From: Neolecta irregularis DAH-3
Taxonomy: Eukaryota
Length of the DNA: 32,314 nt
Reading direction: 5' to 3'
NCBI GenBank assembly: GCA_001929475.1
Contig: LXFE01000148.1
Coordinates: forward strand, 1-32,314
The number at the start of each line of letters is the position of its first letter. The stretch's first letter is position 1. Made by a program: the position numbers and the translations under genes. This document shows, in pieces, positions 1,636 through 31,361 of this stretch. The notes under the pieces are model-generated. The model saw only the letters and a program-made list of their open reading frames with translations, ran no database searches and was not told the origin of the DNA.

Positions 1636-3158
1636 ATGTTCTCCCCACCTGCCCTCCATGGAATGAAAAATCTAGATCGCTCATTATTCCATAAAACAAT
1701 CAACCTCTCAGCAGCTCGAGTTTCTGGCAACCAAATTCCTCTCTTTCAAAGAAGCTGTCACCAGTATGCCAATCTTCCTACCACCTAACTCAAAGAGACG
1801 TCTTCAAAGTCCCAAGACTCCGTAGCATATTGCAGGACGGAGACGATCGACTCATCTTATTACGACCAGGCGTTTTACCAGATGGTAATTATTCTTTTTC
1901 AAAAAAGATTTTAAATTAGATCTCTCAACGTTATCTACACCCACAAGGCAGTTCATTTCTCAACATTCAATAAAAATTGAACCTTACAAACTTGAACTGG
2001 ACTATTCTTATTGGAAAACTGGCATCTATTATCTTGTACCAAAATTAATTTATAGACGACATCCTATCCAGCATTCTACCCAAACACCTCGATGAAATCC
2101 CAGGAGGATTCACTCTAGTCGGCCATATTGGTAATCCTCCAAACTTTTGTCTAACATTTGAGCCCACTTGAATCTCCGAGATCAGTATCTCCCATATAAA
2201 CACATCATCGGCCAAGTCATCCTCGATAAAAATTATAGTGTAAAAACAGTGGTAAATAAACTCGACATCATAGACTCTCAATTCCGCAACTTTCAAATGC
2301 AAGTACTCGCAGGACCCGCCGAATTCATCGTCAAGCAGGTCCTTATTGACATAAAATGCAAACTAACCAACAGCGAGAAAATAATTGTACCTTTCATTTT
2401 GACTTTTCCAAAGTTTATTGGAATTCACGATTGGAGACGGAACATGCACGGCTGATCAAATTATTTGAAACACACGGCATTGTCTGTGATGTTTTTGCGG
2501 GAGTGGGTCCATTTGCTGTACCTGCTGGAAAGAATGAGACATTTGTTCTTGCAAACGATTTAAATCCATCGAGTTATTTAAGTCTTGTTGAAAACATTCA
2601 TTTTAATAAAGTATTCTTGTTAAACGGCTCGATTGATATCTAGGTCGGCGCATTTGTACGCGGATATAACCTTGATGGAGGAGATTTTATCCGACAGAGT
2701 CCGAAATTAGCTGAGGATCTTGGAAAGACTGCTAGCGTTACCGTGGGCCGGTTAAAAAGGAAACAAGATAGAATTATCGCTGTGCCGCGGTATATCTCGC
2801 ATTATGTCATGAATCTCCCGGCTTCCGCCATAGATTTCCTGGGCAAGTATAAAATTAGTATATATTGACCAATTAGCTCATTTTCGAGGGATCTTTTCCG
2901 AAAGATGTATTCCTGACGATAAACTACCAATGATTCACGTTCATTGTTTTTCAAAAACGATGCCTGCTGATGACGATTTACTCTTGCATATTCGCAGGTC
3001 ACTTGCATTCAACATTCCCAGTGCACAAGTGTCGATTCATAATGTCCGAAGTGTAGCGCCGAATAAAGTATATTTTGCAAATGTCACAGGCTGATTGAAA
3101 GGAAATGTACTGTTGTTCGTTTCGATTACCTAAACAAGTCGCATTTGCAGATACATAG
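1636..3158 (+). CDS. TRM5: tRNA (guanine-37-N1)-methyltransferase, 9 exons
   Basis: Motifs [54 protein letters not shown]. Introns 1764-1795, 1885-1919, 2022-2055 (GC), 2131-2162, 2339-2373, 2611-2643, 2843-2876 (GC), 3068-3101 keep the frame. Confidence 0.95.
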
Positions 3159-3200
3159 ACGGGAAAGATTTTTTAAATGTATTATATCTACGACTCAAGT

Positions 3201-5035
3201 TCATGCTGTAAAATCTTCTTCTTCCTCGCCAGTTGAATATACGCGAACAAGAGGCCTATTTGGATCCTGCGAAAATCAGAATCATGTTCATGAGCAAAAC
3301 ATACCTTGATCAGCACAGATTTCCCTTCCGGCATCTTCATGCACATGTCAACTATAGTTCTAACGATTCCCCATCCATTTGAAATATTCAAGTTCATTTG
3401 AGAAGCGAAATCACGGGGCCTGTAGCCACACACTCCCACTACAGAATGTTTAGTCGCGTCCTTGGGATTCATCCTCGACACAAATCTAATCGTCAGCCTT
3501 GCACATGAAAAATGTAACCCGAGTTTCATTTGATCGGCTCCAGCTAAATAACTCTGCACCGCCCATCGAGCTAATTTAAAATTGTTGTTTTTCATTTCAG
3601 TCGCAACGACAGCACCTCTCTGAGAATCCAATTTTGCACGCCAATCAATTCCACTTGATCCAGCTGCCTTTGAGTCAAATTCATTCAAAGCTTTTATAGT
3701 CAGGAATTGAGTTTCACCAGACGGTGTGAGCAAAACTGCATCGATTTCCGTACGGACAATCATCGAGAGAGGTTCTTCTTCACTTATACTCAAATCAAAC
3801 CGTCGGTATCGGTATCCTTTATTAGCTAATGGGTCCGTCTCTTCTGATTCATTGTAAAACGGATCGGGATGTTGAAATTTATGAACCTGAGTAGATTCAG
3901 AAACAACTTGGACGCCAAAGTTTTGGACTATATAAGTTGCTTCCAACCTCAATGCGCTCGAGGTGTTGATTACTTCTTTGATTGTGTCGTCGTCTTGAGG
4001 GGGATTAGCCGCGTTTTCATTGACGGTTACGTAATCTCATGTTAGTCTAGGGTTGTTCATTGAAGAAAATACCAAACGGTCCGTTTTCTCGTTTGTCAAG
4101 GAATAGTTTGTTTCCTTCCCGATGGACGATGATATCCCATGGTAAAACAGACCTTGGGGCACACATCAAAAGAGAGAGAATATTATCCGTTGCAAAAATC
4201 GTAGCTGTGTCTGATTGTGCTAATTTCTGGATCACTGGATCGTCTGTTGTAGTTGGATTGAACTGTACTCGATCAATGCTTTGAAAGATACGTTCGGTTT
4301 TTGGAGCGATTTTATCGTAACTTTTATCGTAAAAATTAAGAGATCCATAGGTTTCGCTGATGTTAATATAGTATTAAAGATTGGCTTACACATCCTCGCC
4401 CTGGCTTACATCCAAATTGAGTTTACTCAAACGATTAAATTCGATTTCATCGACAAGTTTCCAAGTGGGTTTGATATTGATACTAGCATCGCGAATCTTT
4501 GTGGGTTTATCATAATCTTTCCAACCCATCCGTCTGCCTCGGCCAGCTTGATTATTTTGTTGAGGTCGTCGATTATCCTGAGCCGAAAGTCTTCCTCCAC
4601 CGAGTCGCTGAAGGTTACTTCGTCCACCACGACCAGGTTGACTAGACCCTCTTGTAAGTCGAGACTTGTCTGCAGACTTTCGGGCGATTGGATCTTTTGC
4701 TTTTGATGAAGATTTATTGTCAACGACGCTAAATGATCCTTCTTCTTCTTCACCTTGCTGGAATGCAAAAACAGAATTTAGTCCAGCTCCATAGGCTTGA
4801 TATTGATCTAAAGTTAATTATATCATTTAAAAAATGCACCTCTAATTCCGCGTTGCTGACGTCCGGCGTCTCGACGGTCTTTTTCACCGTCAGCAGTCCA
4901 ATCCGCGATTTTCCCCAGTTTATCGCCTTTACTGTACGGCGCATATGGGACATCTGCTAATGGATCATCTTCAGGGGCAGTAGCCGGAGGACCCCATCCT
5001 AATGTTTTTGGGAATTCTGGAAGCGCAAATGTCAT
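3201..5035 (-). CDS. EIF3D: translation initiation factor eIF3 subunit D (Moe1-like), 6 exons
   Basis: Motifs [51 protein letters not shown]. Introns 4839-4808, 4389-4357, 4072-4036, 3518-3486, 3304-3267. Confidence 0.95.
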
Positions 5036-5124
5036 GGGCACTGGAACTGAGATTTGGAGGTGACTTCGTAGATTGTGGCAAGTCACTCACGTTCACCAAT
5101 CCTAAAGATTTGCAGATTTATAGA

Positions 5125-6161
5125 CTACAGGATTTCTGATGCGATCCACTGCGAAATCTCATTATCTGTTTGAATAAAATTTCCCCGGCCATACTTTTTT
5201 CCCACGAGTCCTGCTTCCATTGCTGAGGCTGAAACATAAAACGTAGCTGGTACGCCTTGAATGTCGACTTTTATGATGTCGCCATGTTTGGAAGAAACCT
5301 CTACCATCTGGAATCAGCAGGGATATGATGAAGTGAATACAACGGTCCCAAAGGAGAATGATTTCTCCAAGTTCTGTGTGAATGCGGGTGTTTGCCCGTA
5401 TAGCCAATTGTCTGTCTACTATCGGTAAGGGGTCCGAAGCGGCGATACCTGAAATTCTTTCTCTATTTGGTGTACATCTCCTGTTCTCGCTTCATCCTCT
5501 GTGACATGGACAATTTGACATTCCCCATAGTGTTGTTGAAATTGCATGCAAACACTTTTGACAAATTCTTCATGTGGAATCTCTAGATTTTGAACACTAC
5601 TCCTGACACTATCGATGCCCATTATGCGCAGACCCTTTCTAGTTGATCTCAAAAGCCTATTCAAGTTTTCTAGATTTGAATGGAGGAGCATTGTTCCATG
5701 GTGATACGCTCGGCCTTTGGAAATTTTGAAAGCCGATCCAGAGACCTTTTTACCATAAAGAACAATATCGTGACGATGGTTGACGGTTGTATCTCTTCCC
5801 ATCATGTTCAAGGCTGAGCTCACCAACTGGGCATTTCCAGAGCGGGTGAATTCGGATGACTGCATGAATACACAATAGTTTGTGTTTCCGAGGTCGTGGT
5901 AGACCGTGCCGCCGCCAGATTTTCTGCGGACAAAAGGAATTGAACGGGACTGCAAAAGAGAAAGGTTTATTTCGTGCCAAGGATTTTGATTACGACCGAT
6001 TACTACGCAGGGATTGTTTCGATAGATGAATAGGGAGGTTTGAAGGGGTGTATGGAAGAGAAAGTCTTCAAAGGCGAGATTGAGATAGGGCGAGAAGAAT
6101 TTGGAAATGTAGATTGTCTTTCGTTAGTTGCGCGGGAGAGAGGCGATGCCCGCGGAAGCAT
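5125..6161 (-). CDS. AIM22: lipoate-protein ligase A / lipoyltransferase, 4 exons
   Basis: Motifs NLAFEDFLF, VVIGRNQNPW, RRKSGGGTVYHDLGN, KVSGSAF, HHGTML, WLYGQTP. Introns 6149-6118 (GC), 5448-5416, 5340-5308. Confidence 0.9.
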
Positions 6162-6822
6162 GCAGGAGGCTTCGCTTGAGAGCAAAAACAAGATGTGCAA
6201 GAGTGGCGAAGGCACTGCGTTTTGTCGGCGGTTCGTTGCAGAAATGAATTCGATTAATAATAACACATTTACAACATCCAACAGGTCATCTATTCCATGA
6301 ACCAGATGCACTAAATGATAGCTCCTATCCCAGACATGAGGGTTTGGGTTACATGCTTGATATAATGAGGTAGCCTACATACCTTCCTACTTCTATTACT
6401 TTATTATGCTATTCTAATGTACTGTGTTGTTGTTCTTGTCTTTGTATTAATTAAAGGCCCTTCCGCGAGGAGAAATAATAGCAACTGGGGAAATTGCCTG
6501 ATAGAAATCAATTTATGTGAGCAATTTTTGTTGTTGAATGGGGGATTGCCGTCAGTCTGAGCCACGCAATGTGATCGGACTCGGTAAATTAGCAATTCCG
6601 GTCGCAGGCGGCGGGTTTTAACCACCTGCCTCGTTCTTTTCTCGACATCTTCAAAAGGCAGACAGAATCCCAGCCTTTCGGACAATAGCGTGTCCAACCG
6701 CCCGCCCGCCGTGGTCGACTGTTCGTGAGAAAGTGCTCCATGGTGATATAAGTTGACCAAATTTTCAAGTTGGGCAGACATTTGTAACCCCTTTTGACTT
6801 GAAACCAAATTTGAAACAATAT

Positions 6823-6905
6823 ACCAAGCTATACACCTGTTCCTTTTAACCAACCCGCACAATTGCCTGCTGGAGCACTCTCAGGCGGGCGGTTCAGATC
6901 TCTTC
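6823..6905 (+). repeat. ~85-bp dispersed repeat, copy 2
   Basis: ACCAAGCT..ATACAC..CCAACCCGCACAATTGCCTGCTGGAGCACTCTCAGGCGGGCGGTTCAGATCTCTTC aligns with the reverse complement of 1520-1608. Confidence 0.75.
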
Positions 6906-8235
6906 AGCGATTGGTTCAGAACTTTTTTTATTATCACCAATCTCACTTACAATTCACTATCCTATCTATTTTGGCACGGGTTCTGCTTCAAACGTCGGTT
7001 CTCTGTCTTCTCGAGAGTATCTTCGTACCGAGAGTATGGGGCGTGCTGACGAGTCACCGTCGGTAAACGGGGCTTAGCTTAGCTTATCGCGCAGATTCTG
7101 GTTGTAGAGTATTGCAGGGGGTTCTGATATATATCAGAAAACGATTCTTAGAGGAGATGAAGCGAAAACGATTCATTGATTCTTTGCGTGGATGGATAGA
7201 GCATTATCCAACGCCGTACAAAGAGGCAGCTACATAACTACTTATAGTTTTACAAGTATGAGCCACGTCATTGTAGTAAACCAAGGAAGCGTATAATAAT
7301 AGAAAACCCCATCAGATAACCGGAAAATACTACGTGGACCGTTTTCCTGCGACAAGCTTTTCCATTTATTTTTACCTAGAGCATGTACTGGAAGGAATTA
7401 TGTTGTGTTCTGCAAGTATATAGTATAGTCTCGCGCCCCTCTTTCTTCCTAACAAAATATCAAAGATCAAAAAGAACATCCTTAAGAAGCCTACCTGCTA
7501 CTACCTACCCATTTAACAACAATCAACACTCACTCTATTCTCATCCTTAAAACGACTTTAATCTTTGGGACGGATTCTGCGCGAAATGCCCTTACACTAG
7601 CAGTTCCTCAAATCACCCCTGTCTCGGATGCACATAATTCCGAAGCTATCCTAGCTATAAGTAGGCAGGCCCAGGCTAAACAGAATTCCTTTGACCTCCT
7701 CTTATCGCACGGAATAATTCAGCTTCCATGCCACAGTTTTCTTTGCTAATGTGGCTTATAGCCTTGTTCATTGCTTCTTCGTCGGGTATGGTACTCTTTT
7801 ACACTGTCTGAATTTGTAGTTGAAGGCGCAATCATAGAACGTGGCGCCTTTCACTTAAAAGACTTACCATCTCCTTGTGAACCAATGGATCCCAACCCCC
7901 GCTGCCACACTTAAGACTTTCCTTATGGGAACTTTGAGTACCTTGCTTCTTTTATGTTAAACCGTGTCTTCCAATATATATTCCAGAAGTGAGGGAATTG
8001 CCTTTGCTAGGACTGTATATCTTATTTGAGTAAAGAATATGTGTTGTGTATATGCTGCATGAAATTCTCATTGGTTTTACCACTGGGGCATTCCAAACGA
8101 GTGGATGGATCGTCAACAGGCAGCTATAAGTTGGTTACTTAATCACGTGGATAAATCCAGCCATGACCAGTTGACATTTTATTCCCATGACTCACTTCAC
8201 TCGCGTGCTACCACTTGATCTGCGCGCATTCGAAT

Positions 8236-9521
8236 ATGAGGGTACTAGGCACAGCGATTAGGCGATTTTTGCGGCGGTGGCAGTACCGCGAACAGCGGCC
8301 GGCAGCAGGCGACCGGGTATTTGTCGCGGTTTCTGGAGGTGTAGACTCTGGTGTTGCGGCCGCACTTGTAAAGCAGCAGGCATGGAAATTCGGCCTCTAC
8401 CCAGCTAAAAGAAGGGTTTCCAGGTGGAGGGTATATTTATGCGGTCGTGGGATGCAGAAGGGTGCAGCTCGAGTGCGGATCTTGATGCTGCTCGCGATGT
8501 TTGCCGGTCGCTGGATATTGTTCTGCACACTGTTGATCTGAGTAAAGAATACTGGCTGCGGGTGTTTGAGCCGCTGCTGGCGGAATATGTGCAAGGTCGA
8601 ACGCCGAATCCCGATATTGAGTGCAATTCTCTGATCAAGTTTGACTGCCTGTGTGCACATATAGACCATAAAGTGAAATTGAGTGGAGCAAACTGGTGGT
8701 TGGCGACTGGTGACATTCCCGGGCGACGCCGCTGATGCAATAGGCCACTATGCGCGCACTGCCCGCCTGCGCCGTTCGAGTTTGTTGCTGCGACCTGCGG
8801 ATGCAAACAAAGATCAAACATTTTTCCTTGCGCGCATCCCGCAGCACGCTCTCCAGCGGGTATTCCTCATCACGTGCGCCGCTGACGTCAGTCCCTCTTC
8901 CCGCTTGCACACTTAACCAAACACCACGTCCGCAGACTTGCGCGCCTGTTAAATCTTCCAAATGCAGATCGCAAAGACTCACAAGGCCTCTGCTTCGTCT
9001 CGCCTGCCCATTCTCGCTTCGCCAATTTCCTGCACGAATATATCCCAAACAACCCTGGCGATATCATCACCACCGACGGCCAAAAGATCGGCACCCACAA
9101 TGGCATCTGGCATGGCACCATAGGCGAAAAGAGCCACTGCTACGTCACGAATCATAGGTGGTTTATTGTTGCAAAGGATCCCGTCAACAATACAATCATC
9201 GTCGGGAAGGGCTGGGACAACCCATTGCTTTTAGCACGCAGAATATTCGCTGCACACTGGAAGTTTGTTGATGAAATCCCTCGGCCTCCTGGTACTCGTA
9301 TCCCCAACTTGCATGTCCAAATCAGACACCGCGAACACGCAGGTATGCAATTTTGTTTATCAAGTTGAACAATAGGATATGCAAATGTCCTCATTCTACA
9401 GGATGGCAAAGCCGTTGTAGAGTTGGAATCTCGGATTCGTGCTGCAGCTCCCGGACAGACTGTTGTTGTCTGGGACGATGATATGTGTATCGCAAGTGGA
9501 ATCATTGAATCTGCATATTAG
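8236..9521 (+). CDS. SLM3: mitochondrial tRNA 2-thiouridylase (MnmA family), 5 exons
   Basis: Motifs SGGVDS, GRTPNPDIECNSLIKF, ATGHYAR, KDQTFFL, KDSQGLCFV, APGQ. Arg-rich N-terminus. Introns 8380-8414 (GC), 8710-8743, 8860-8891, 9343-9375. Confidence 0.93.
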
Positions 9522-10066
9522 ACTGGACATTGGTTCAATGACCTCTTAATCTATGTACTATTCCCACAAATGTCATGTATATTTTGTGTAGTGTAATTGT
9601 AAGTGTAATATGTAATATGTAATTGTAATTTTAATCTGTACAGCTATCATTATGGACAACTGTATATCTGTATTATAATCTATATCCTTGTATCTCGGTT
9701 AGCTGAACAATAAACCTTTGACACAGAATATTCTGTTCTCCCAAGCATTTATCTACCCATTTTTATCTTTGCTATCCTGAGTGGCAATTGATACAAAATG
9801 AGTCCTCAGTTTAATTTAAATTCTGTCGACAGATGTGCTGTTGATTTTACCTCACGCTATCTGGGTCCCAAGTTACTCTTTTCAATAGATTCTCGAAATT
9901 CTGGTTCATCCCATCACATATTTATCTAATTTGTTTAGTGCAGAACTTGATACTAGCTATCGTATCAAAATTTCCTGACTGTTTCTATTTTTTCTGTCTA
10001 TTCCTATAATTTCCGTTCATTCCATCTTTTCTCTCAACCCCAAGCGAATTCGATGATAGAAACTTG

Positions 10067-10630
10067 CTATTCAATATTAACAATTTTATGCACAAATTCC
10101 TGCTCTAATTTCCTGATTTGACCCCTGAAGTTCATCAGTACTTTCACTCAAAAATGATTTGCCCATACTTGAAATCCTCTACTTCCTTCCAACATTCCAA
10201 CGGCCTGTGTTCATGTAATTTTAGACAACCCACTAGATTCTCCCGAACTTGGTTAACACCATCTAATTCCCTTAATTTTGGACGTTTTTCCAGTTTCTTT
10301 TTTAAATTTGCGATATCGTTAGATAGAATAGTGCTATTTAGACCGGAATCATTTTCTATATTTATTTTTGATAATTCAGATGCTTGACGTTCAAAAGCTT
10401 CGGATTCAAGAAGTTCAAGTCTCTTCAGCTCGGCATGGACTCGAGATTGAATATGTGATTCAAGTGTTATACCTCTGCTTATATCGGCCTTCCTTTTAGA
10501 TACGACGTGAAAAAGAAAATACTTTTTTCGAGTCGAGATGTTCGACTAGTACCGAGGAGAGCCCTATAGGATAGGATCGCGGGTTTTGGACTACATAAGG
10601 CTGCGAAGAGGCCGACTGACTATTTCCCAT
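10067..10630 (-). CDS. MIC19: MICOS subunit Mic19 (DUF1690), 3 exons; missed by the ORF track
   Basis: MGNSQS N-myristoylation motif, TLESHIQSRVHAELKRL, and C-terminal RENLVGCLKLHEHRPLECWKEVEDFK. Introns 10522-10489 and 10168-10125. Confidence 0.85.
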
Positions 10631-10856
10631 CTTGCGAGGTGGAGTGAGTGTTCGTGTTGGGCTTGACCAACCCCAATCTCATTAGTAACACAAAGACCAA
10701 GAAGATGATCTTGAAGGTTCTATCTAATCCACTTGTGAAGATCATTGGAATCCATGAGGCTTAATAAGGATACAACCATAAAAAAGCATTCTATGCTTTG
10801 TCCTAACCAAAACCTTTGGCTAGACCTTAAAAAAACCCCAACACCTTTCAACATAT

Positions 10857-11899
10857 TCAAACTCCATCAACGTATCTTTCCTCCACATTCCTGAAGAAAT
10901 CGTCTTTTCGTCGATCAGATGATCGCGGAACACTCGACTGTGATGAACTATCAACTATGTAATCTGCATGAGGCAAAGCTTTAGCAATATAAGTTATATC
11001 TCCATAGATGACATAGTACCTTCATCTGGTGATAACAGACCCATTTCATCAAGCGCATGGGGAAATTGTCCTTCATCTTTATCTGATGAGCAGGCTATAC
11101 TTTAGCATTCACACCATCCGAAACAGATATACTCGACTCTTCTCCCATCTCATGATTAGAACATGTCCTGAAATCACCTACTGCATCTAATGAATCAACT
11201 GAAGCCAAGGCGGCTTCAGACATCAAAAATGCATCTAAAGCATCATTTGCATAATCGAGTAAGCCCAACATACCGCTGGTCCTAGTTGTCATCTTGGTTA
11301 TCCCATCCCTCGGATTTAGGATTTCAAAGATCACGTCGTCCACTTGAACCAATTCGATTTTGCGTGACGGACTTTTAAAGAGATCCCTTCGTATCCGATC
11401 ATATTCAACATCTTGAAGTTTGCTATGGGTTGCTATTCAGTCAATCCATATGAATTCCGAGAGGGATACAAATGGGCGAAATCTGGGAATCAATTAAGGG
11501 TGCGGCTATCGAGGACTTTTCAAATTTGCTTTCCACAAATGTCGAATCTGCAGTATTTTCTTGCTTGAAATCTTTGTTCGATGAGGAGAATTTCTTTTGT
11601 AATTTCTCAAATCGAGTTTCGCGGAAGGGTGTATTGGTCACATTCGGTGGGAGTACTCGTTTCGACCCAGAAGTCCATCGCAAGAGCCCTGACTTCTTCC
11701 GGGTGAGAGTGTGATGACCAGTTCCTGAGACATTGCTGGGCGTTGATGTTTGACAAATGACCTGCCGCGGAGAACGGGTGGTCTCTATCGATTGGGAGGA
11801 GGGTAGAGCGGAACTGCTTTCAAGCTGGTGTCTGTTTCAGTCAGTTTTGGTCAATCGATGAGGGGATGGTGAAACACAAGAGAGGTGTGCCTACTTCAT
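10857..11899 (-). CDS. hypothetical Ser-rich protein, ~5 exons
   Basis: ORFs 11441-11683 and 11095-11352 join in frame through short GT-AG introns. Stop at 10857. The start is uncertain. Confidence 0.55.
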
Positions 11900-12325
11900 G
11901 ATTCTGGCGACGTCGTTCGACCCAACTTAACAGAGCGCTAAAGAAGAGGAAGCTACGGAAAAGGGGCAAGTAGACATAAAGAGGCAAACAGCGAGGACAA
12001 GCGCCCGAATCGTCACTGGGAATCGAAATTAAAAGATGGATGTCATTCCCTAATCTCTCGCATATGAAATGACGGTGGGCTTGATGTGGCTTGCTTTGTA
12101 TTCGTATCTCCAAAACTATTTCTACATAAAGCTTGTCTAAATTTCCTGGTAGCATTGTTCGGTGTGGCATTGCTAATCAAAAATATGATTCAAAGGGATG
12201 GGCCAAGAGACCGATGGAGCATTTTAAGATCGACAAAATGTGGAGAACTAGGAAAGTGATCTGCACTTCGAGGCCAGCCTCCCGCCATTCCCAACCGCTC
12301 ATCCAATTATTCCAATCGAACAATT

Positions 12326-14255
12326 ATGCATCTGCCCGCATTACTTCAAGCCCTTCGCTCTCAAAAGAGACATCAGGCGCAGGAGGTCTCGCAGTATCGG
12401 TATGAATCAATGGATATGATCTCTCCCGTGGCGCGCCCACTTTTGCGAAAGCCAAAGCCCCGGGAAGAAGTTTGTCGCCTATCAACTTCCAAAAGTACGA
12501 GGTCCCTTTTGCCGGAGACGAAGGTGGAGAAGACAACGGAGCATGTTGGAGGACCGTGTTTAGCGAGGTGGGGTGCTGATGAGGATATCACGACATGGCG
12601 AGGTTACGTAAACGCTTACAAGCAGGTATGTCTCTGTTCTGTCTGCAATTTCAAATAAAAACGAATGAAATTCGTCTCCACGTAATCGCTGCGAGAAAAC
12701 CATGTGATGTATTGACATATTTATTTGGTTGGCTCTTTTAGAAGTCGCAAAAACATTGCTCTGTTTTCCGCAAATATTCGACACCCTAAATTTAGATTTC
12801 TGATATGAAATATTTGCCATAAAATTAAATTGCAAGGTTATACAAAGATCCTCGTATTCATCTCTTTTAAATTTCTTTCTTGATTGTAAATCATGTACTT
12901 ACTACTATTCAGGGCCGGTTAAACTTCTCGAATCCCCCCTTGCCACCCCCAGATATGCCACACATGAACTATTTTCCACCTCCTATACCTGATAATGAGA
13001 AGGAACGTCTGGCTGCATGACTCCCACTGATTCTTTCGAGTAATGAAAAAGGCCGTTCGTGCATACGACACCCCCCCTAATGCGGCCAACTTCCAAAGAA
13101 TTGTTTCTGCATTAAGAAAGTTATTCAATACTAATTTAGCATTTGTATCTCTAATCCATGATAAAAAAGCATTTGTGAAATCTCAAGTGGAATTTGGACT
13201 GTAATTGCTTCCTCCGGAACTTGGCTGATATGCTAGAGATGCCACAACCAGAGATATAACCTTTTGCGGTCATACAATTCTCGGTAGCGAACCTCTTGTT
13301 ATTCTAGATACACTTAAAGACTGGCGACTAAAAGGAAATCCTTTAGTGGTGGGTCCTCCTTACCTAAGATTCTACGCAGGATCTCCAATAATAACCCCTG
13401 TTTGTATTTTTTTGGGATTCTACTAAGGGCTAGGAAGGTTTTGCAATAGGGACGGTTTGTATATTAGATTTGAAGGCTCGCGAAAGCTTCTCTGCACAAG
13501 CTCGGCGTCAGCTATCTGAATTTGCTCGAATCGCTATGGATGAGATCATCAGACTTAAAGAACAAAATGCTTCTGCGATGTCAGCTTTACTGGACGATGA
13601 AATGGTATCTGGCGAAGCAGTGTTCAATGTCAATGGGAAGAAGTATAATATCCAATACAGCAGAACAGAGGAATTACAAGAAGAAACTTCCGAAAGTGTT
13701 TTGAAAGCACCGAACTACTCTTCTGCTAAGCCGGATAAAAGAACTTCGTCAGGAAGGACAATTCCCCATGAGCGAAATGCTTCGCAAAGCTCAAATAATC
13801 CGCAAAAGCACTCATCGCATCCACAAGCTGACAATGTCACTGAACAATTGAACGCCCTTGATATCGCTGTAGAACTTGTTTCTCAAACACTGAAATTGGA
13901 CCTGGTGTATATTGTGAAAGTGTCTCCCTCGCGAAATGTTTGTGAATGTAGCCTTCTAGTATCTCATGGTCTTTCCACTCCGCTTCCAGTATTTGACCCG
14001 ACTTTACACTTACGAGCCTTGAGATCAGATAATGGATTGGTTTACGAGAATCCGACCAACGAGGATCAAGTTTACAAAATAGGAGTTCTCGTTCCGGTGT
14101 GGAGGGAGGGCGAAGATAGAACGGAGTGTGTTAAGGGTGTCATACTTGCTGGATTTGCAAAATCTGGAAGATCAAAAGGATTTACACGGAAGGAAGTTAA
14201 TTATCTGAGGGATTTTGGACCATTGTATTCTTCTATATGGTCAGCCCTCACTTAG
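12326..14255 (+). CDS. GAF-domain protein
   Basis: PIPDNEKERLAAV, RDITFCGHTIL, DWRLKGNPLVVGPPYLRFYAGSPI, GFAIGTVCILD. Introns 12626-12912, 13015-13051 (GC), 13201-13236, ~13399-13432. Confidence 0.85.
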
Positions 14256-19043: not shown

Positions 19044-20348
19044 CTATTGTCTCTTTAAGCTTCCATAACCTGAACCGACACTGTCGATTCTTGATGTACG
19101 CTGTATCTCTATGGCGCTGTTGCCTCCAAAACCTTTATGGCCACCTCGAGCACATCTTCGAAGGACGTTCTTTAATTTGTCAATTGCATCTTCGGATATT
19201 TGATGATGCATAACAATCCTTCCGTTGCCCAGTTTAATACCTGCTTTCTTTGCTTCCTTGTCAATTTCATTAAAGTCCGGATAACGAAGCAATATCATAT
19301 TTGTTTGGACGGGAAGGAGAAGCTCGTATCCTAGATCTGCAATGTAATTACTCAAGGCAAGAGTAATCTCGTGGGTTCGTTGTAGAGTCGGGAAGATGTT
19401 GTCGTATGCTGCCCGAGCTGCAGCAGCGAGTAAACCACTCTACGGATGTCAGCTGAAGAATTCTAGAGATGAATGCATACCTGACGAACTCCACCGCCAA
19501 TAGCCTTACGATACCATCTCGCCATTTTTATTGTTTCTTCATCGCCAAGAATGACGCTTCCATACGGCGCTCCCAGGCCTTTCGAGAAGCAGACAGAAAT
19601 TGTGTCTACATGTTTTGCGTATTCAGAGAGGCTGACTTTAGAGGCAACACTGGCATTCCATAGCCTCGCTCCGTCTAGATGAACCTTGATGCCATGGTCC
19701 TTTGCAAGCTTGGATATCTCAATAAGATCTTCAATCGGCAATATAGTTCCGTTGAGAGTATTTTCCAAGCTGATTATCTTTGTGGGGGCTGTATGAATAT
19801 CCTCCAGCACAATGCCACGTTTGATATCTTCAAGGGTCAAATGGATTCCGTTTTCAGGAAAAACAGGAGTGAGCATTGCACTGCTTAGAAGCCCCACGCC
19901 ATTCGCTTCCCACGCATATACATGTGCTCTCTTATCGCAGATAATTGAGTATGGGCCCCGGGGCTCAAGGCTCTTTAAGCTCAGTTGGTTGCCCATTGTT
20001 CCACTGGCCACAAACAGAGCGGCAGGCTTCTGGAACAGGTCGGCGATAAACGCCTGGAAGCTGTTTGTCGCGTGGGATTCGTGGTATACATCGTCTCCGT
20101 GACTAAGGGCCTGCGCAAGAGCCGCTAGCATTTCTGCAGTCGGGGTTGTGACTGTATCGCCTGAAGAACGGGTCAGCGTAGGACGGTCAGGGCAAGGCGC
20201 GCGCACTTCTAAAATCGTGGGAAGCCATCGCGCTTGCCGCAGGCGACTGGTTGCTCGGCAACTGGCGGGGGCAGAAATATGCTCTCGGAGCAGTGGGCGG
20301 TAGTTTGGGGCGAGTCGCGGCTGAGGCGACAGTGCGGCGCTGGAGCAT
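19044..20348 (-). CDS. GLY1: low-specificity L-threonine aldolase, 3 exons
   Basis: DFRSDTVTTPT, GDDVY, SGTMGNQL, LENTLNG, HLDGARLWNA, CFSKGLGAP. Two in-frame ATGs (20348 and 20228). Confidence 0.93.
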
Positions 20349-20448
20349 CCGAGCAAGAGCAGAGCGGGGCAGTTTGCCCGGCCAATTTCGGTACGCTAGA
20401 CCTGTCACAAGGTAAATATTGCGTCCACGTGGTCTCTTGACGGGCCAG

Positions 20449-21276
20449 CTACAAACAACCCAGTGCCCCGCCATCCCGCCCAGTACTGGGCAACGGTGTT
20501 TCCAGCATGGCGCCCGAGCTGCAGTAGTCTTCCCGCAGAATGGCCTCCCAGATTTCCGCCGCTCTTTCCACTATGTCGTCTTCGCCTTTAGCGCTCAAAA
20601 TACCTGCAATCGCACTTAAACACAACCGCTCATGAAGCAAAAAATACACATATGGCGAAGCAGGGATCATGGATCGCTTGCGATGTGGAAGTGCCGGAAG
20701 TGCTGCCCCATGAGGCCGAAGCGTCATGTCGATTCGCTTGAAGATTTCAGGCGTGATATACCGATCCCGCAAGTTCAGATATATCCTATTCTCCCAACAG
20801 AATCTTCGATTTTGGAGCTCCTGTCTAACAACACATGGCTTGGAGATCTCGACGAGACGTCGAAGAAATGTTGACGACATTACAATACATCCGTTTCGGA
20901 TAATGTGTGCTGTAGGACCGTTTTCAATTTCATCGGCCAGAACATCGAGATACGTCAGAAAGCTTTGATCTTGACTTTGGAGCGCGGCGGCGATTTGCGA
21001 TGTCATATCCAATACTGAATAGAGAAAGGCAATGTACGCCATCGAGATCGTTTTAGCCTTTGGCCGAAACACATCGGATACTAAACGTAAACATGGACTC
21101 TGATCAACCTCGAGGAAAAATCGCTTGTTGAGAAGGGAATCGTAACAAGATAAAACCGTCAACGACAGCAATCGAGAAACCCGATAAACATTTACGATAC
21201 TTCGAATATCTGTATAGCGCAATATCTGGGTAAGCAGCTCTGTAGGAATCTTGGAGAAAACGTCGGGTCGAGACAT
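20449..21276 (-). CDS. F-box domain protein (275 aa)
   Basis: N-terminal FSKIPTELLTQILRYTDIRSIVNVYRVSRLL fits the F-box consensus. Uninterrupted ORF. Confidence 0.7.
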   Translation of the reverse strand: MSRPDVFSKIPTELLTQILRYTDIRSIVNVYRVSRLLSLTVLSCYDSLLNKRFFLEVDQSPCLRLVSDVFRPKAKTISMAYIAFLYSVLDMTSQIAAALQSQDQSFLTYLDVLADEIENGPTAHIIRNGCIVMSSTFLRRLVEISKPCVVRQELQNRRFCWENRIYLNLRDRYITPEIFKRIDMTLRPHGAALPALPHRKRSMIPASPYVYFLLHERLCLSAIAGILSAKGEDDIVERAAEIWEAILREDYCSSGAMLETPLPSTGRDGGALGCL

Positions 21277-23293
21277 TGCTGGATGGGGCGAAATGAGGGA
21301 CTGTTATATATCCTGCTTGAGTCACTAACCGCGTGAGAAGCAGAATTCTTGTATTGAAACCAATTAAAACGCCTCATTCGTTAACGAATATGTTCGTACC
21401 AAATGTTAGCCTTGTTTCTTTCGGAGGTGCCATCTGCACACAAGCTACTTTTCCTTAGTCACCTGAATTTCAAGGGAATGAAGCTAAGTTTCGTGAATAC
21501 TGATTAGATAAGACTTGATTCATGAATTATTGCTTCAAGACCCAGTAGATGTCGATGTTTCATCAATGGCTCCTAAAAAATTACCTGATCAATAATACCA
21601 TTAGGCGATTGGCTATGATCCTTTTATCTTACTTCTTGGAAGAATATTGAAGAATTCGTCTACATCATCGACTTTAGTCAGCTACGGGAATATCCTCCGG
21701 TAAATTTCGAATGGTCTGAGATAGTTGGTCTAGTACTGAAAGTATTCAGAAACCAAGGATCTTCTATCTATATATCGATACATAAAAATCACAAGGTGTG
21801 AAAAGCTTGAAATTATCTTTCAATTGTCTTTAGGCTATTGTTCTCAGGAAGAGGATTAAGGGAAGGCCAATTATCGCGAGCTTGTCATCATACTCATGAG
21901 GACTATTATATCAAATCTCGTGTTTCATACGAGAGTATAATCAGTCTTCCACGAAGATCGACCTCCGCTATACGTAGAGCTTCACACTATCGCAGGCAAA
22001 AAGTGCATAGGCTGTCCTACAATTCTCAGCACCAAAGTTTTAGCCTGAAGAATTACGGACGAAACAGTAGAATCCGAATCTAGGATTTACATTTGACAGA
22101 TGAGATGATTGGGGTTTGGAGCGAATTCCCTGCATGTGATAAAGAAAAGCGCGAGTTCGGTTTATGCCAAGAGACCAACCCACCTTTTAAGTAAAACGAA
22201 ACAACATGAAACTAGTTTCGAGAAATTCTTGCTTTATCAAATAACCAACAGTTTCAAAGATCGACAATTTGCTTTTGCTTTACTGCTGTGACTCTAATCA
22301 TTCTGTCTTGATTAGGCCTATATCCTTGTGATAATCGCCAAAGCGGTCTTATTATTTCATTGCTGAACAGTCCTCCTGAGAAATGAAAGCTCGAACCAAA
22401 GGGGATTTGGTTGTGCGCCTAAAAAACACCAATCACTGTAGTAGTTCATTGTCACAGGGAATCAGCACTGACCGGATGGCATGTATGTGCCTGTGCACGA
22501 TTGAGTTTAGAGTGAAAGGAGCTCAAGCAATTCTTTAAGATCAACATGCCACACTCACAAGAACGGGCCATAGCTTCTAAAGGAATTTTCCCAGGCCAAG
22601 AAGGTTAAATGGCAGCTAACTCGCTTCATTTTTAGTCGCTTTTACAACCCTCCATGTATCCACCGCTTTTTTCAATGTGAGGACGCCTGTTAACACACAG
22701 GTTCCAATCAGTGTTCACAGTGAGTTTTAATTGCTTTGACAGGCGGTGGGTTTTTGGTGGAAATGGGGTTTGAAGCTTTGGTGTGCGAGGGCGGGGTCTT
22801 GGAGCGAGGAACCAAGTTATCAAAAGACTTGACTCGCTATTCAGACAGCATCCTCTTCTATCAAAAAAGAAACCTTCGCAGCCCTTTTATCGTATCCGCA
22901 GAACACAAGCTATGCCAAGTGGTTCAGAAAAACAAAAATGATAAAGTAGTAAATAAAAATAAAAGATAAGAAACTTCTCTAAACTAGACCTAGTGAGACA
23001 ACCAGCCGCATTCCCCTATACAAGAGACCTATGGCAAGCCAGACCGATTCAATGACCTAGTTCTTCAAAGTTAAACGAAACACGACGTTGGTTTTGGATG
23101 ACCGCGTGCTGAGACGTCTAAAAATGCCGCGCAAAATAGTTGAGGTAAATGATGTGATGATATGGGATAGTGATAGGAGTTCCGAAGGAGCTGGGGGGTA
23201 ACTGTTGGGGTAAATAGGGATAGTGGTAGGGTGAGGGAGTAGAAGAGGTTTGTCGCTGTAACCGGAAAATGAAGAAATGCGTATTTCCAAGTT

Positions 23294-23497
23294 ATCAGGA
23301 CGGTATCATGGAGATAATCATCATATAGGTTCTCCTTCTATGAGGTCACATCTTGATCCGATAACCCTTTGCCGACGTCAACCTTTGGAGGAGCCAAACT
23401 GCCCTGATTGCGAACTTCCCAAGCTAGACTAACAATATAATTCATTTCGCCTTCTTTTGTGCCAAGTATATCTAACATTTTGGTGCGTCCAATCTCA
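23294..23497 (-). pseudogene. inverted ~204-bp copy of 25015-25218 with a premature stop
   Basis: About 12 mismatches by eye. The parent TGG (Trp) is TAG in the copy. Confidence 0.9.
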
Positions 23498-23927: not shown

Positions 23928-25300
23928 ATGGTTAATCTACGATCTTGGATTTCGTTGGCTCTGCTACTTGTAGTACTTTACATAATATACAAGATCGACA
24001 GGTGTACAGTTCTTGCGACAATCAGCTCAGAAGCTGATGGTTTTCCAGACAATGAACCCGATATTGCATATTTCTCTTCGCGCAGGATGTTTTCATCTAA
24101 CCATCCTTTTGGAGTAACAGAGATATGCTCCACTCATCATATCCTAACCAGCCCATCGAATCCCCACGGAATCACCCCAATCGACTTCGGCTCCGCGAAA
24201 CTCAATCCAAATATCCTTCCTCTTCCCCCCAATGCAAAATATCCGTATTTTATCATTGGGAGATCTACGACGGACGGTTCGTACCAGGAAATTGTGGCCT
24301 GCTTTGCGGATTTTGAACATCTACCATTGACACAACGTCGTATTCTCAAGTGCGTTGACGAACCAAAAGTGATCACGGTCCCAAGCACGAAGGCCAAAAA
24401 ATGCGAGAAAACATGGATGGAATTAGTGAAAGGACCTCATGACCCTAGAGTTTTTTGGAGTCCGAAGGGAGAGCCACTCATGACTTTTGGCACTCAGAGT
24501 TCATTTACTTGTTTTGGCCAATGGATTGTCGATTTACGGGCTGTTTATCAACCATTGAATGACCTTCTCAGTGGAACTATCGGGGGAAATATTAATTTTT
24601 CCGAGCTACAAGAGCTTCGACGGCCTGAGCCTTATGGCGAATTCGAGAAAAATTGGTTTTTGATCTGGGATGAAACCGGAGATATGTATGTTCATCACGA
24701 CTCAAATCCCAGAGTCTTTTCAAAACTCGGCGTCGAAACCCCGGTGAATTTGGCTCAAGAGAAGCCTTGCAGATCACGTATACCACTCTGGTTGAGTTTC
24801 AATAACTTGCAGTACCAGACCCATCGCTGCTTCCAGAAGGTGTCGACCATCATCAATCGACAAACACCCTCCTTGTCTTCCTATGCAAACGCTTGTCCTG
24901 CCCACCCAATCCCCCACAAGTCCTTATATCTATCCATCAAAAGAAATACTTTGAGATGTATCACGCATTCTATCAGCGATATGTAATTGTTTACTCCGCA
25001 ACTTTTCCATTTCATGAGATTGGACGCACCAAAATGTTAGATATGCTTGGTACAAAAGAAGGCGAAATGAATTATATTGTTAGTCTAGCTTGGGAAGTTC
25101 GCAATCAGGGCAGTTTGGCTCCTCCAAAGGGTCACGTCGGCGAAGGGTTATCGGATCAAGATGCGACCTCATGGAAGGAGCATCTATATGATGGTTATCT
25201 CGATGATACTGTCCTGATCAGCCTAGGAATCGAAGACAAATATAGTGCGATGCTCGATGTAATAGCACAGGACTTGGTTGGATGCTTGGACACGTGTTAA
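23928..25300 (+). CDS. type II membrane protein, putative beta-mannosyltransferase-like (GT91/GH130-like) enzyme, 2 exons
   Basis: N-terminal TM helix, GPHDPRVFWSPKGEPL, EKNWFL, HQSTNTL. Intron 24778-24812 joins ORFs 23904-24986 and 24893-25300. The family assignment is tentative. Confidence 0.65.
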
Positions 25301-25627: not shown

Positions 25628-26332
25628 ATGGTAACACCACCTTTATTCAACCCGAGTCTGACCAATTGTAGTCACAGACACTCCGTCCATATTTATCTGC
25701 TGTCCGTTCTTCTCTGGCCGCTGCTTTGTGTCTAGAGAACTTTGCATCCCAAGTCGTGGAGCGCCACAATAAACCTGAAGTTGAAGTCAGGTCTAGTCTC
25801 CCATATACGACATTCATCCGCCATGCTGACTGCTGTTAGAACGACACCCGAGGTCCTTCTGCAGCCTATTCATATTTCGCGGAACGAATCAGAACGTGTA
25901 CTTATAGAACCATCAATTAATTCAATTCGGTTCAGCATCAAAATTAAGCAGGCAGATGAAATCGAACATGTTCTAGTTGATCGGTTTACTAGATTTTTAA
26001 TGGGCCGTGCAGAGGCTTTCTTCATTTTGCGGAGAAAGCCAATCAAAGTAGATTAATCGACAATGCATTTTTGACAACTAAGGGCTATGATATATCCTTT
26101 CTAATCACCAATTTTCACACAGAGAGTATGCTAAAGCACAAACTTGTGGATTTTATCATCGAGGTATCCTTGATTTTGGTTCATTCAGTTGATCTGTAGT
26201 TCATGGAGGAAGTGGACGCGGAAATCAATGAAATGAAACTTTTCCTGAACGGAAGGGCCCGATTCATTGCTGAAAGTTTTTTGGCACAGGCATAGCACAC
26301 TTTTTTGACGTTTCTGACATTAGTTCGATTAA
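25628..26332 (+). CDS. ARC19: Arp2/3 complex subunit ARPC4, 6 exons (exon 1 coding part is ATG only)
   Basis: [61 protein letters not shown]. The last intron 26290-26323 has a GC donor. Confidence 0.95.
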
Positions 26333-27189: not shown

Positions 27190-29220
27190 ATGTCCAGAGG
27201 ACCTGCAATGCAACTCGGGTTTAGAGATGGCCCGCGACATGCAAACCTATTACTTCGAAAATCTAGTTCGTCTGCGCTGTGGATGGATCAAACTTGTACG
27301 CCGATGACCAGTCGTCCTCCTAGTCCTAAAATTGGGGCGTATGAAGATTATTTCTTGTGGTTCGAGCACTGATCTTGTAGAACAAAAGGGACTATTGATA
27401 TTCCTGGGCTTACGCGGGCGAGAGGTATGTTATTCTTGACAGGCTCCAGATAATGATATTCAGGCGGTCGCCGTAACTCAGACGATATTGGTTCAAAGTT
27501 GTGCATCGCTTTAGTCGGCCTACCTGCCAGAGGAAAATCCTATATTGTGAAAAAACTGGACCGCTATCTTAGATGGTAGTCGATCAGATTACATCAGGTT
27601 CATTGAGCAAATAGGCTTCAACATTCTACGCAAATCTTCAACGTCGGAAATTTGCGCCGAAGAAGATCCTGTGCATTAAATGACCACGATGCAAAATTCT
27701 TTGATCCCCATAATGAAGCTGCTAGGAATGTCAGGGAAGAGTTGGCAAAAGAGTGCCTCGAAGAACTAATTCATTTTCTCCTCTATGAGGGAGGCACTGT
27801 GGGTATCTTAGGTATATATCGACAAACTCTGGTCAGAGATTGACAAATTTCATAGACGCGACGAACTCTTCTCGTAGCAGGCGAAAAATGATTATAGAAA
27901 GAATAGCCCAAGAACCACATCTCAAGAGTAACTGTTAGTTTTCTGTAACTCTCTAATCGTTGCAGTACTTTTCATCGAGTCGATATGTACGGAAAGCGAG
28001 ATACTCGAAGCGAATATACGTCTGAAGCTTTCTGGACCTGATTATCATGACAAAGATCCCAGGTTATCACTTGTAGACTTTCGGAAGAGGATAGAAATGT
28101 ATGAGCAAGCCTATGAAACCATCGACGAAGACAAAGAAGAAAACATACAGTATTGCAAAGTAAACTCTTTCATTTCCGATGATATATAATAACTTGTAGC
28201 TGATCAATGTCGGAAAGAAAGTTGTTGCTTATAACATACAAGGATATCTCTCAGGTCAGGCAGTGTATTTCTTACTGAATTTCAACCTTGCACCACGGAT
28301 GATTTGGATTACACGTCATGGTAATTCTTCTTGTATATCTGTTTTGATAAGTTAGGTGAGTCTGAAGATAACCAAGAAGGAAGGATTGGAGGGGATGCCG
28401 TTCTAACCGAACGAGGACATCGTTACGCAAAAGCTCTTTCTAGATTTCTCGAACGTATGGCTAGTGTGAGCAATTCACCCAACTGATCTTTAAGAACAAC
28501 GCCGTGATTTTAATGATCGCCAAATTGAACTTCGCCAATGTAAATCTCCACTAATGTTCACAAGTTCACCTCCTCCGCCGTTAATAGAAAAATCATTCAG
28601 CGTTTGGACAAGCATGATGCAACGATCTATCCAGACATCGGAGTTTTTTGATGAAAGTGTTTACGACGTCAAAATGATGAGGATGCTGGACGAAATCAAC
28701 GCTGGTATCTGTGAGGGAATGACATACGAAGAAATAAAGCAGAGCTATCCAGAGGAATTCGAGGCAAGAAAACAAGATAAACTGAACTATCGCTATCCTG
28801 GGCCAGGAGGTGAGAGTTATTTGGATGTCATCCATCGACTGAACAGTGTGATTGTTGAGGTTGAGCGGTACGAATCTATACATATTGATTCACTAATGCT
28901 ACATTCTCAAGGATGACGGATCATGTATTACTCATAGGTCATCGTGTTGCAACCAGGATTTTGCTTGCCTACTTCTTGAACCTCGATCAGAAGGCATGAA
29001 AATACACATGTGCTGGAAAATATGCTGACTCTTCTTTCTAGCTTATTACTGACCTTGATGTTCCCTTGCATTCATTGTACGTTTTAGAGCCAAAACCATA
29101 TGGGACAGGCTTTAAAAAGTATTTTCGATTCAACCTGTTTTGGTTCTCTAACGCCGCAGGTTCACGTATGACGAAGGGAATGATCAGTTCATCGAAGCAA
29201 ATATCAAAGGCGTGTATTAG
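27190..29220 (+). CDS. PFK26: 6-phosphofructo-2-kinase (Pfk26-type), ~12 exons
   Basis: TIDIPGLT, VGLPARGKSY P-loop, FNVGN, DATNS, LFIESIC, WITRHGES, LDEINAG, YPGPGGESYLDV. Intron 28994-29041 has a GC donor. Confidence 0.9.
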
Positions 29221-29493
29221 TCTGCATCTTGTATGCTATTGAGTTTCTTTGGTTGTATGTTGATTTGCGACGGTTTCGGGGTTTGGCACATGGTACTTTT
29301 ATTCTGGCTTTCATATTTTTCGCCCTAAATGTTATAAGGCTGTTTTTTCTGCTGTATTTTGATCCTTTGAGAGATATTGTAGCATAGTTGAAGGGTGTTG
29401 TCGTGAGACTCAATCAGGTAAATCGTATAACAGTATAAATGAGGAGATCTATTTCAACATTTGACCACAATCCCCAAACCTCTATTTCATAAA

Positions 29494-31361
29494 ATGAGCA
29501 ATAGAAGCCCATCTTCAGCATTGGTTGCCTGGATGCAGCTTCTGTATGACTTCAATTATAACATGACTAATGTGACAGGATGAATGCTAAAGCAACAAAT
29601 ACTCATGTCTTGAAAGATTATGATGTTAATGTTAAAACTTGTTCTTTTGACAACTTCTTACAATATTCAACCTCAGGACCTGAACAAGGTACTATTGGAT
29701 CCTCTACAGAAGAAGAAAGAAGGAAATTCTTAGGTTTAATTCATACAGAACTGGAAAGAAGTATACCTCTTTCCCAAGAGTATTGGAGTTTGATTGAGGC
29801 ATTGAGTACAGTAAAGTCTTGTAGTTTGTCAATATTTGATAATTTAGGCAAAGCCAAATGATTCTTTAGAACAAATCAATCACTCTTTTGACAATGAAAC
29901 TCATTTGCCACAATTAATACCAAAAGAAGCTACTAAAGATAATGATTCTGCCATTAGTTCTGTATTGATTTATTTCTACTTCTGCTAAATTTCTTAGTAT
30001 AAAACAACAACTGTAGTTCCAACTCCTTTTGTGAAATCTCCAAGGCAAAATACTAATGATAATTCTCCTATTATACCTTTAACCCAAGCTTTTGTTGGAC
30101 CAATAGTTCCAGTTATTTCTATTTATCAACCTGAAGTTACTATTGGGAGACTTAGTACTGCTATAACTGATAATAAAGTTAGAATTGCTTTTAGAAAACT
30201 TCAAAGTAATTCTGTATTATATTTCTCAATAATATCTTCTAATAATATAGGCTTCTGTTAGACAAATTATTAAATTAGGTATTCCTTCTATGGTTAAGGC
30301 AACTATTTTAATAAGTTTAACAATAGCTAATCATTAGATTGATCCATTTTCTATTAAACAGTCAGAAGGTTTTGAAAATACAAATTTCTATCTAAATCAA
30401 AAAGAGCTAGATCCTTTCAACCTGAACCTACCTCTACCTTCTGCCAAAGGTATTCAATGGCATCTCAAATGGCCTAAAGAAAGAAATTTAATACTAGTAC
30501 CTATATTACCTTTATTATCTATCAAAATTATAGAAGATAATATAGTACAAGAAGAAGAGAATTCTAGAACATTTAGTATATCTAACTTAATTTCATATTC
30601 AGAACCAAGAATACCTTCAACAAATTCAATAAATAAAGCCAAAGAGAATATTGTTTCAAGTCCTAGATTATATTCTTGGGCTTCATGTTGTAGTAGTCTT
30701 ACAAGTACTCCAAGTCCAGAAAAACAAGTTTCTCCCAACAAGCAACTAATACAAGGAGGTGAAATACTTGATAAAAAATACAAAGGTAGGAATTTTATAC
30801 AAAAATCTTGGTCTCCTGCAATAAATCAACAATGTTTTATTGATAAAAAAGAATCTCCTTTAGATATATCCTTACAGTCTTTATTAGTTAAAAATTTAAA
30901 TCAACCAAAAATATCTTTCCAGTATTCTAATAAAAATAAAGGAAAATCTCTTTTGAAATCAAAAATAGAAACTCCCTATGAAAATGATACTGAACCTTGG
31001 TTATTTAATAAAGAAAGTCCATTTTTTAAAAGACCAATTTACTTTAACTCCTCAAAATATATACAAAAGGTATTTTATCTTAAAATTAATCTCTTATAAC
31101 CTTAAGATATCTTCTACATCTCTTGAGCACTCCCACTTAAATATAAAAGATGATGAGGTATTACTTTACCCCAAAAAGGATATACAGAAGAATTCTACAA
31201 ACTATTCAAATACAGATATCAGTATATTATCAAAAATAGAGATTGAAGATATTAACAACTTTATTATCAGTGAGTTAAGGGCTAAAGGTGAGAAAGAAAC
31301 TACTCTAACAAGATATAAAAAAGTACTCAATAGTTTATATGAAGAACAATATCTTATTTAA
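29494..31361 (+). CDS. orphan protein (~550 aa), 7 exons, no CpG
   Basis: Introns 29544-29578, 29811-29847, 29962-29997, 30214-30250, 30299-30337 (GC), 31070-31106 give one stop-free frame, including a 732-nt exon (30338-31069) missed by the ORF track. Confidence 0.65.

Follow-up and report, generated by a model that had tools for sequence, protein, structure and literature searches.

An unusually high share of GC-AG introns on one contig of Neolecta irregularis

The DNA considered here is one contig of Neolecta irregularis, an ascomycete that diverged early, strain DAH-3 (LXFE01000148.1), analyzed whole (32,314 bp; hereafter, the window) and picked because it looked odd: a preliminary description had called about 64 introns by hand and held that eight of them need GC in place of GT as the donor dinucleotide. 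The G+C content, computed on the contig, is 42.5% for the window and 37% for its introns. For the genome as a whole, the genome paper gives 14.5 Mb, 44% G+C, and 5,546 genes, with both DNA and RNA sequenced from fruiting bodies (PMC5309816). Pfam searches of long open frames named genes for TRM5, eIF3d, a lipoate-protein ligase, an MnmA/MTU1 protein, a DUF1690 protein, a threonine aldolase, an F-box protein, and PFK2/FBPase2, and ARPC4 (ARC19) was identified by its match to solved structures. The eight GC hexamers stand where they had been described, seven on the plus strand and one (6149) on the minus strand, and are spread over seven genes across 28 kb.

A total of 62 introns were curated in 16 gene models from open-frame segments, homologue alignments, three NCBI proteins, and the joints seen in contigs of a sequencing run, X2. 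Two cases were excluded from the count: a small plus-strand set of open reading frames at 17.8-18.1 kb, for which no GT-AG or GC-AG first intron would fit and in whose bin the X2 depth was nil, and the uncertain first intron (~26.9 kb) of a minus-strand gene at 26.3-27.0 kb. In the minus-strand gene at 10.9-12.2 kb, a modeled first intron at 11877-11832 was wrong, and a 63-nt intron seen in X2 was used instead. A gene finder based on codon usage and dynamic programming mis-joined neighboring genes and served to propose coordinates only, never as evidence. The curated set comprised 54 GT-AG and 8 GC-AG introns (12.9% GC-AG; 95% interval, 5.8-24%, from a table of 8 in 61), in agreement with the earlier count of eight. 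All non-GT donors found were GC, and all acceptors were AG.

Junctions were assessed by a scan agnostic to splice-site sequence, in which every segment within ~30 nt of the proposed ends was removed, the open-frame products were kept, and each such product was scored against a hidden Markov model (HMM) of homologues. In a control, the ranks of six GT-AG introns of TRM5 among 333-507 products were 1, 29, 1, 2, 1, and 2; the intron ranked 29th lies where the protein is poorly conserved. Five of the GC sites (2022, 2843, 8380, 13015, and 28994) ranked first to fourth of 247-466 products without a plausible GT-AG alternative, and at each of them removal of the intron restored the reading frame and collinearity with homologues. 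These GC-AG junctions behave like the GT-AG controls, and the five sites are forced by homology. Most GC donors had been described as forced by conserved protein sequence on both sides, with the TRM5 junction YWKT|DDIL and the ARC19 C terminus as examples; that description holds for the five sites, the TRM5 junction included, but not strictly for the ARC19 C terminus.

Two of the five introns lie in TRM5, on the plus strand. The first (2022-2055; 34 nt, phase 1, donor GCATCT) joins ...YWKT to DDIL... and gave the top product of 290 and, in a second scan, of 383 (65.5-65.7 bits; HMM of 92 TRM5 homologues); no GT-AG product was possible, and the NCBI model, P0001, splices at this intron. The second (2843-2876; 34 nt, donor GCAAGT) joins ...AIDFL to AHFRGIF... 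and ranked 4 of 466 at 104.5 bits (top, 105.3), the best GT-AG rival scoring 97.1 bits and requiring a 19-nt intron. Here P0001 reads through to a stop, ending ...GKYKISIY, and so loses ~95 C-terminal residues; the C-terminal exons missing from it were found at 2864-3067 and 3099-3149 by tblastn with P0067 and P0092. The third intron (8380-8414, plus strand; 35 nt, donor GCATGG) joins ...LVKQQ to GFQVEGIFM... in the gene for a mitochondrial MnmA/MTU1-type 2-thiouridylase. It was the top of 308 products at 101.9 bits, against 87.5 for the best GT-AG product (donor 8368), with an HMM made from only two bacterial MnmA sequences, both from loci found in a genome-contig scan. The flanking exons align without gaps to solved MnmA chains, the junction falling at Q31|G32 of 9hln/9hlv and at Q40|G41 of 2der.

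The fourth intron (13015-13051, plus strand; 37 nt, phase 0, donor GCATGA) joins ...EKERLA to AVRAYD... in a gene for a GAF-domain protein and was the top of 366 products (137.2 bits; best GT-AG, 125.0). A relative, P0122 (91% identical, 512 amino acids, from a JGI source), matches the spliced product exactly: ...EKERLAAVRSYD; ...PIPDNEKERLAAVRSYD.... A scan of metagenome contigs with the DNA of P0122 found no relative. The NCBI model, P0121, begins downstream of the donor, at the Met encoded at position 13043, and loses the first ~130 residues of the protein. The fifth intron (28994-29041, plus strand; 48 nt, donor GCATGA) lies in the gene for 6-phosphofructo-2-kinase/fructose-2,6-bisphosphatase; it is divisible by three in length and contains a TGA in frame. 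With an HMM of 62 homologues, it scored 66.9 bits, which is within 1.6 of the best of the 247 products; no product with GT-AG ends was possible, and the homologue P0246 spans the junction at equal length in the alignment. A PDB search with the exon that follows 28994 gave no matches, and Pfam searches of the short exons that flank the junctions gave nothing usable.

Contigs of two runs, X1 and X2, were aligned to positions 1700-21699, and sites 26290, 28994, and 30299 lie beyond that range. Run X2, labeled "DNA?", skips segments with GT..AG or CT..AC ends and behaves as a transcript assembly, with ten intron joints over five genes among the joints listed (15 of 42, five of these 15 in a repeat at 7060-7394). 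Nine of the ten are GT-AG, eight of them coinciding with curated introns and one correcting a model. The tenth is a contig that skips exactly 13015-13051 (13014->13052, 37 nt, GC..AG) with 105 letters on its shorter side, which is direct support at the RNA level for the splicing of one GC-AG intron. The introns at 2022 and 2843 are not among the 15 joints listed.

The same alignments bear on whether the C at +2 is an artifact, that is, an assembly or sequencing error or a base edited to U in the pre-mRNA before splicing. Over 1700-4877, 4909-6431, 7511-10304, and 10532-19478, the X1 contigs differ from the window by 0-1 letters, none of them at a donor; at a depth of ~350-420, they confirm the C at all five donors that they cover. 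The X2 contigs in which the introns at 6149 and 8380 are retained carry the C as well, and on the strength of both runs assembly error was rejected; the same error arising independently eight times at functional positions would be implausible. Nothing was found in support of an artifact, the idea resting only on the fact that editing is invisible once an intron has been removed, and we consider it barely credible.

The other three GC sites are less tightly constrained. The probable intron at 26290-26323 (plus strand; 34 nt, phase 0, donor GCATAG) precedes the last two codons (FD) of ARC19/ARPC4, so that splicing yields ...FLAQFD* and the NCBI model, P0126, ends in A instead of FD. With an HMM of 12 complete ARPC4 homologues, the spliced form scored 51.0 bits and the read-through form 47.2, a difference of 3.8 bits in favor of splicing, and CTGAC stands six nucleotides before the AG. 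The last helix is kept in 14 of 37 ARPC4 homologues (160-186 residues), whose tails read TPFD (9), APFD, AQFG, TNI, TPVSP, and TPVIRL..., and the spliced tail ...FLAQFD agrees with the fungal tails TPFD, APFD, and AQFG; where TP is followed by V, as in two of the tails, the sequence suggests that a GT intron located at this position in Pezizomycotina was read through. The intron at 26290-26323 is very probably real. At 25628-25671, the ATG by itself makes up the first coding exon of ARC19 and a 41-nt GT-AG intron comes directly after it; the same arrangement is found in P0126 (M|SQTL...).

In the lipoate-protein ligase gene, a probable intron at 6149-6118 (minus strand; 32 nt, donor GCATCG) comes after a first exon of four codons (MLPR). 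Over the ~250 nt lying upstream of the ligase's conserved exon, the only ATG of any frame is that at 6161, no GT separates this ATG from the acceptor, and a start at the next in-frame Met would cost ~85 conserved residues of the LplA-B catalytic domain. This intron, too, is likely to be real. The possible intron at 30299-30337 (plus strand; 39 nt, donor GCAACT), which ends in an in-frame TAG, lies in an AT-rich orphan gene for which no homologue or Pfam family was found to decide between it and a single 124-nt GT-AG intron at 30214-30337, equally in frame. Because all but 2 of the 62 curated introns are 54 nt or shorter, we hold the shorter, GC-AG form to be real on balance. The orphan gene itself (29440-31361; ~530 codons, five short introns) has a G+C content of 36-38%, and its composition differs from that of the rest of the contig; it matched no Pfam family and no homologue in the searches made. 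At three donors (13015, 26290, and 28994), the intron opens in phase 0 with GCA TGA or GCA TAG, so that an unspliced message would stop one codon into the intron, a pattern that, with n = 3, may be due to chance.

In branch-site motif and length, the GC introns resemble the GT-AG introns of the contig. Median lengths are 34.5 nt for GC and 37 nt for GT introns (37 nt overall, with 60 of 62 introns at most 54 nt long), and 6 of 8 GC and 37 of 54 GT introns carry a YTRAY motif at a distance of 4-16 nt from the 3' end. The GT donors have A at +3 in 43 of the 54, T at +4 in 28 and A in 13, G at +5 in 15, T at +6 in 22, and G at -1 in 28, and even their commonest hexamer, GTATTT, occurs only four times. 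The relaxed donor recognition that had been suggested for this lineage is supported insofar as GT donors carry little information, with G at +5 in 15 of 54. All eight GC donors have A at +3, six have T at +4, four have G at +5, and seven have G at -1; outside +2, their matches to CAG|GTAAGT average 5.0, versus 4.07 for GT donors, so that the GC donors are modestly compensated. The near-perfect donor AG|GCAAGT, which is typical of the GC-AG class without defining it, is found only at 2843, and six of the eight donors are GCAT. The label "non-consensus" earlier given to GCAT was not upheld, in that GCAT is the local GTAT consensus with C at +2. The U12-type 5' splice site has the motif [AG]TATCCTT; none of the eight donors has ATCC at +3 to +6, GCATCT and GCATCG sharing only ATC with it, and U12-type introns were ruled out.

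GC-AG introns account for 1.3% of 2.46 million introns from 61 species (PMC3033335). In fungi, the GT-AG share is 98.7% (PMC7072748), and the GC-AG shares reported are 1.0-1.2% for certain ascomycetes and as much as 3% for basidiomycetes (as cited in PMC4500085). Compared with the usual 1-1.3%, the contig has about a tenfold share. Against an expectation of 1.2% in 62 introns, the probability of eight or more GC-AG introns is 8e-7, that of six or more is 1e-4, and that of five or more is 9e-4. We are highly confident that five or more of the eight sites are genuine GC-AG introns, and a genome-wide GC-AG share well above 3% is reasonably probable.

A number of observations weigh against this reading and bear on a second one, which accepts the GC-AG introns but takes the genome-wide rate to be ~1-3%, as is ordinary for fungi, and the window to hold a chance cluster together with one or two over-called sites. 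Every count rests on a single contig, chosen for its oddness, and when only the five firmest sites are set against a 3% expectation, the probability rises to 0.04. The intron at 30299 is optional, being needed only if the 16-codon exon 30251-30298 is real; the case for 6149 is indirect, made solely from start-codon logic; and read-through of 26290 yields ...FLAQA*, the form found in the NCBI model P0126, equal in length to the 168-residue solved homologues. Over-calling is easy, as loose settings of the gene finder returned spurious GC-AG introns at 24769, 6409, 27366, 5440, and other positions. The NCBI models are said to be supported by RNA-seq (PMC5309816), and of the four GC introns for which an NCBI model was seen, only 2022 is used; 2843, 13015, and 26290 are ignored. 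The apparent compensation in GC donors is nonsignificant at n = 8 (Fisher P of 0.07 for G at -1, 0.22 for G at +5, and 0.33 for A at +3; 61-intron table).

The X2 contigs contribute two further points on the same side. Record 10 runs gap-free over 7819-8708, so that the MnmA intron at 8380-8414 is retained, and ends where that exon ends; record 9, gap-free over 5449-6955, retains the ligase intron at 6149-6118 and breaks off at the next exon end. Both would be partly spliced transcripts with the GC intron retained, their splicing at the following GT intron being suggested by where the contig pieces end. Left unspliced, the MnmA message shifts frame ahead of the conserved core, and the ligase message offers its conserved domain no start codon; for these genes to work, splicing must therefore take place to some extent. 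Set against a chance cluster are the five forced sites, which together with 26290 make six and the probability of 1e-4 given above, their distribution over so many genes and so much of the contig, and a GT donor consensus that is weak throughout it. We regard a local outlier of this kind as unlikely. At least five or six of the GC-AG introns on the contig are real, one of them with RNA evidence, and the donor consensus of the contig is weak; that the same rate holds genome-wide, with relaxed selection as its cause, is what we infer.

Each of these introns is an ordinary member of the U2-type GC-AG class, and it is their frequency that is unusual for a fungus and for a genome of moderate G+C content. 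Like U2-type GC-AG introns elsewhere, they have GC and AG ends, resemble their GT-AG neighbors in branch site and length, restore frame and homology when removed, lie in housekeeping genes, and tend to upset automatic gene models. They are unlike the usual U2-type GC-AG introns in making up 12.9% of 62 introns and in that only one of eight donors is the classical GCAAGT, the GCAT form prevailing. High shares are known from algae, namely, 39.6% in Aureococcus anophagefferens, 22.2% in Micromonas pusilla, and 7.7% in Chlorella sp. (PMC3033335). As in those algae, GC donors are no rarity here; the algal figures are genome-wide, and that for Neolecta comes from one contig. The GC-AG-rich algal genomes have 66-70% G+C, and G+C content was proposed as the driver (PMC3033335). 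The present case differs, with 42.5% for the window, 37% for the introns, and 44% for the genome (PMC5309816), and the explanation offered for the algae does not apply here.

The algae bear likewise on the suggestion, made in the preliminary description, that the machinery itself has changed, with an altered U1 5' end, U6 ACAGAGA box, or U1-C, Luc7, or Prp8 reading C at +2 nearly like T. The high GC share and the weakly compensated donors would fit this suggestion, as would the donor GCT|GCATGA, which has 3 of 8 matches to the consensus and yet is spliced; for the GC-AG-rich algae, too, proteins of the U1 small nuclear ribonucleoprotein or base modifications were put forward as a possible cause (PMC3033335). 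In two of those algae, however, Aureococcus and Micromonas pusilla, the U1 5' end is canonical (PMC3033335). An Rfam scan of the window gave no matches, so that it holds no small nuclear RNA, and nothing on the contig bears on the machinery. In addition, T is six to seven times (6.75 times) commoner than C at +2 in the curated set and two GC introns are retained in transcript contigs, which looks more like tolerance than equal recognition. A changed machinery is, in our judgment, distinctly improbable.

Other lineages offer looser parallels. The genome of Oikopleura is compact. Many noncanonical donors have been reported in Oikopleura dioica and Eurytemora affinis, where they are GA-AG, and in Meyerozyma guilliermondii (PMC7072748). 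The Neolecta contig is like these three in what would be a lineage-specific loosening of the donor dinucleotide; their excess consists of GA-AG or mixed minor classes, and that of the contig is of GC only. Less conserved 5' splice sites are reported for species rich in introns (Irimia, Penny, and Roy 2007; cited in PMC8476143), and N. irregularis, for which 4202 introns were counted in 1211 orthologues, is such a species (PMC7940399). The low-information GT donors of the window fit this pattern. The work on intron-rich species concerns positions +3 to +6, and an effect on +2 would be our extension of it. A literature search found no paper that pairs Neolecta with GC-AG introns, supplements, which may give a genome-wide figure, lying outside that search. 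The words "intron" and "splice" are absent from the main text of the genome paper (PMC5309816), whose supplements likewise lay outside the search, and donor dinucleotides are not described in the parts covered of the literature on Neolecta splicing, including PMC8476143 and PMC7940399.

The explanation that we favor, with moderate confidence, is that these are ordinary U2-type GC-AG introns that have become unusually frequent in a lineage of ultra-short introns with low-information donors. The introns of Neolecta irregularis are numerous and very short, with a donor of no more than G-T-A-(T/A), and a YTRAY branch site shortly ahead of the AG is the clearest signal they carry. Given a donor that says so little, recognition may lean on the branch site, the 3' end, and a short, fixed length; selection against T-to-C at +2, the substitution best tolerated by the spliceosome, would then be weak, and GC donors could drift to about one intron in ten. 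Such donors would keep the local consensus (GCAT) and gain slight compensation, mainly a G at -1. The likely cost would be less efficient splicing of some GC introns, seen as intron retention. More tentatively, about one in ten introns of Neolecta, and perhaps of all Neolectomycetes, might have a GC donor and be spliced less efficiently than its GT neighbors, with a sizeable group of housekeeping genes throttled or regulated by intron retention and recognition achieved by length and branch site, not by U1 pairing. If so, no fungus would be known with a higher GC-AG share, and this would be the first such case outside G+C-rich genomes; the genes affected would include those for tRNA modification, lipoylation, Arp2/3, and PFK2.

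Should the rate on the contig hold genome-wide, several hundred Neolecta gene models would probably be truncated, in a genome widely used as a "living fossil" outgroup in fungal comparative genomics and in studies of intron gain and loss. A fungus with 44% G+C and ~10% GC donors would also separate base composition from GC-donor abundance, and introns of 32-50 nt would offer a compact system for asking what minimum of donor information a spliceosome needs.

Several other features of the contig were observed. The divergent LplA and MnmA genes are separated by a multi-copy segment (6369-7702) into which the transcripts of both run; its X1 depth is 3,080-9,860, against ~400 elsewhere, and its X2 depth is very high too, with length variants (the joints at 7060-7394). 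It is probably a dispersed, transcribed repeat. A 204-nt inverted repeat (23294-23497 and 25015-25218; 94% complementary) puts an incomplete, inverted copy of the final exon of the gene at 23.9-25.3 kb (...EIGRTKMLD.LGTKEGEMNYIVSLAWEVRNQG...) just upstream of that gene. The eIF3d gene has a 33-nt intron (3486-3518, minus strand; GTTACA...TTAG) that is divisible by three in length and lacks an in-frame stop; its read-through would add 11 residues before the conserved FVSR, and the Pfam match extends over 244 residues for 232 profile positions. In the region of the DUF1690 gene (10061-10562), record 5 of X1 (depth 457 of 880) differs from the window by 20 letters and one gap over 244 bases, with further variant sites up to 10562, which would reflect either a diverged allele or a second copy. 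Near the left end lie a tandem repeat at 65-164 (30-nt unit, 3.4 copies) and a 30-nt duplication at 597-655, and near the right end (31569-31691) lie G+C-rich tandem units of 16-27 nt (GCGAGACAGG...).

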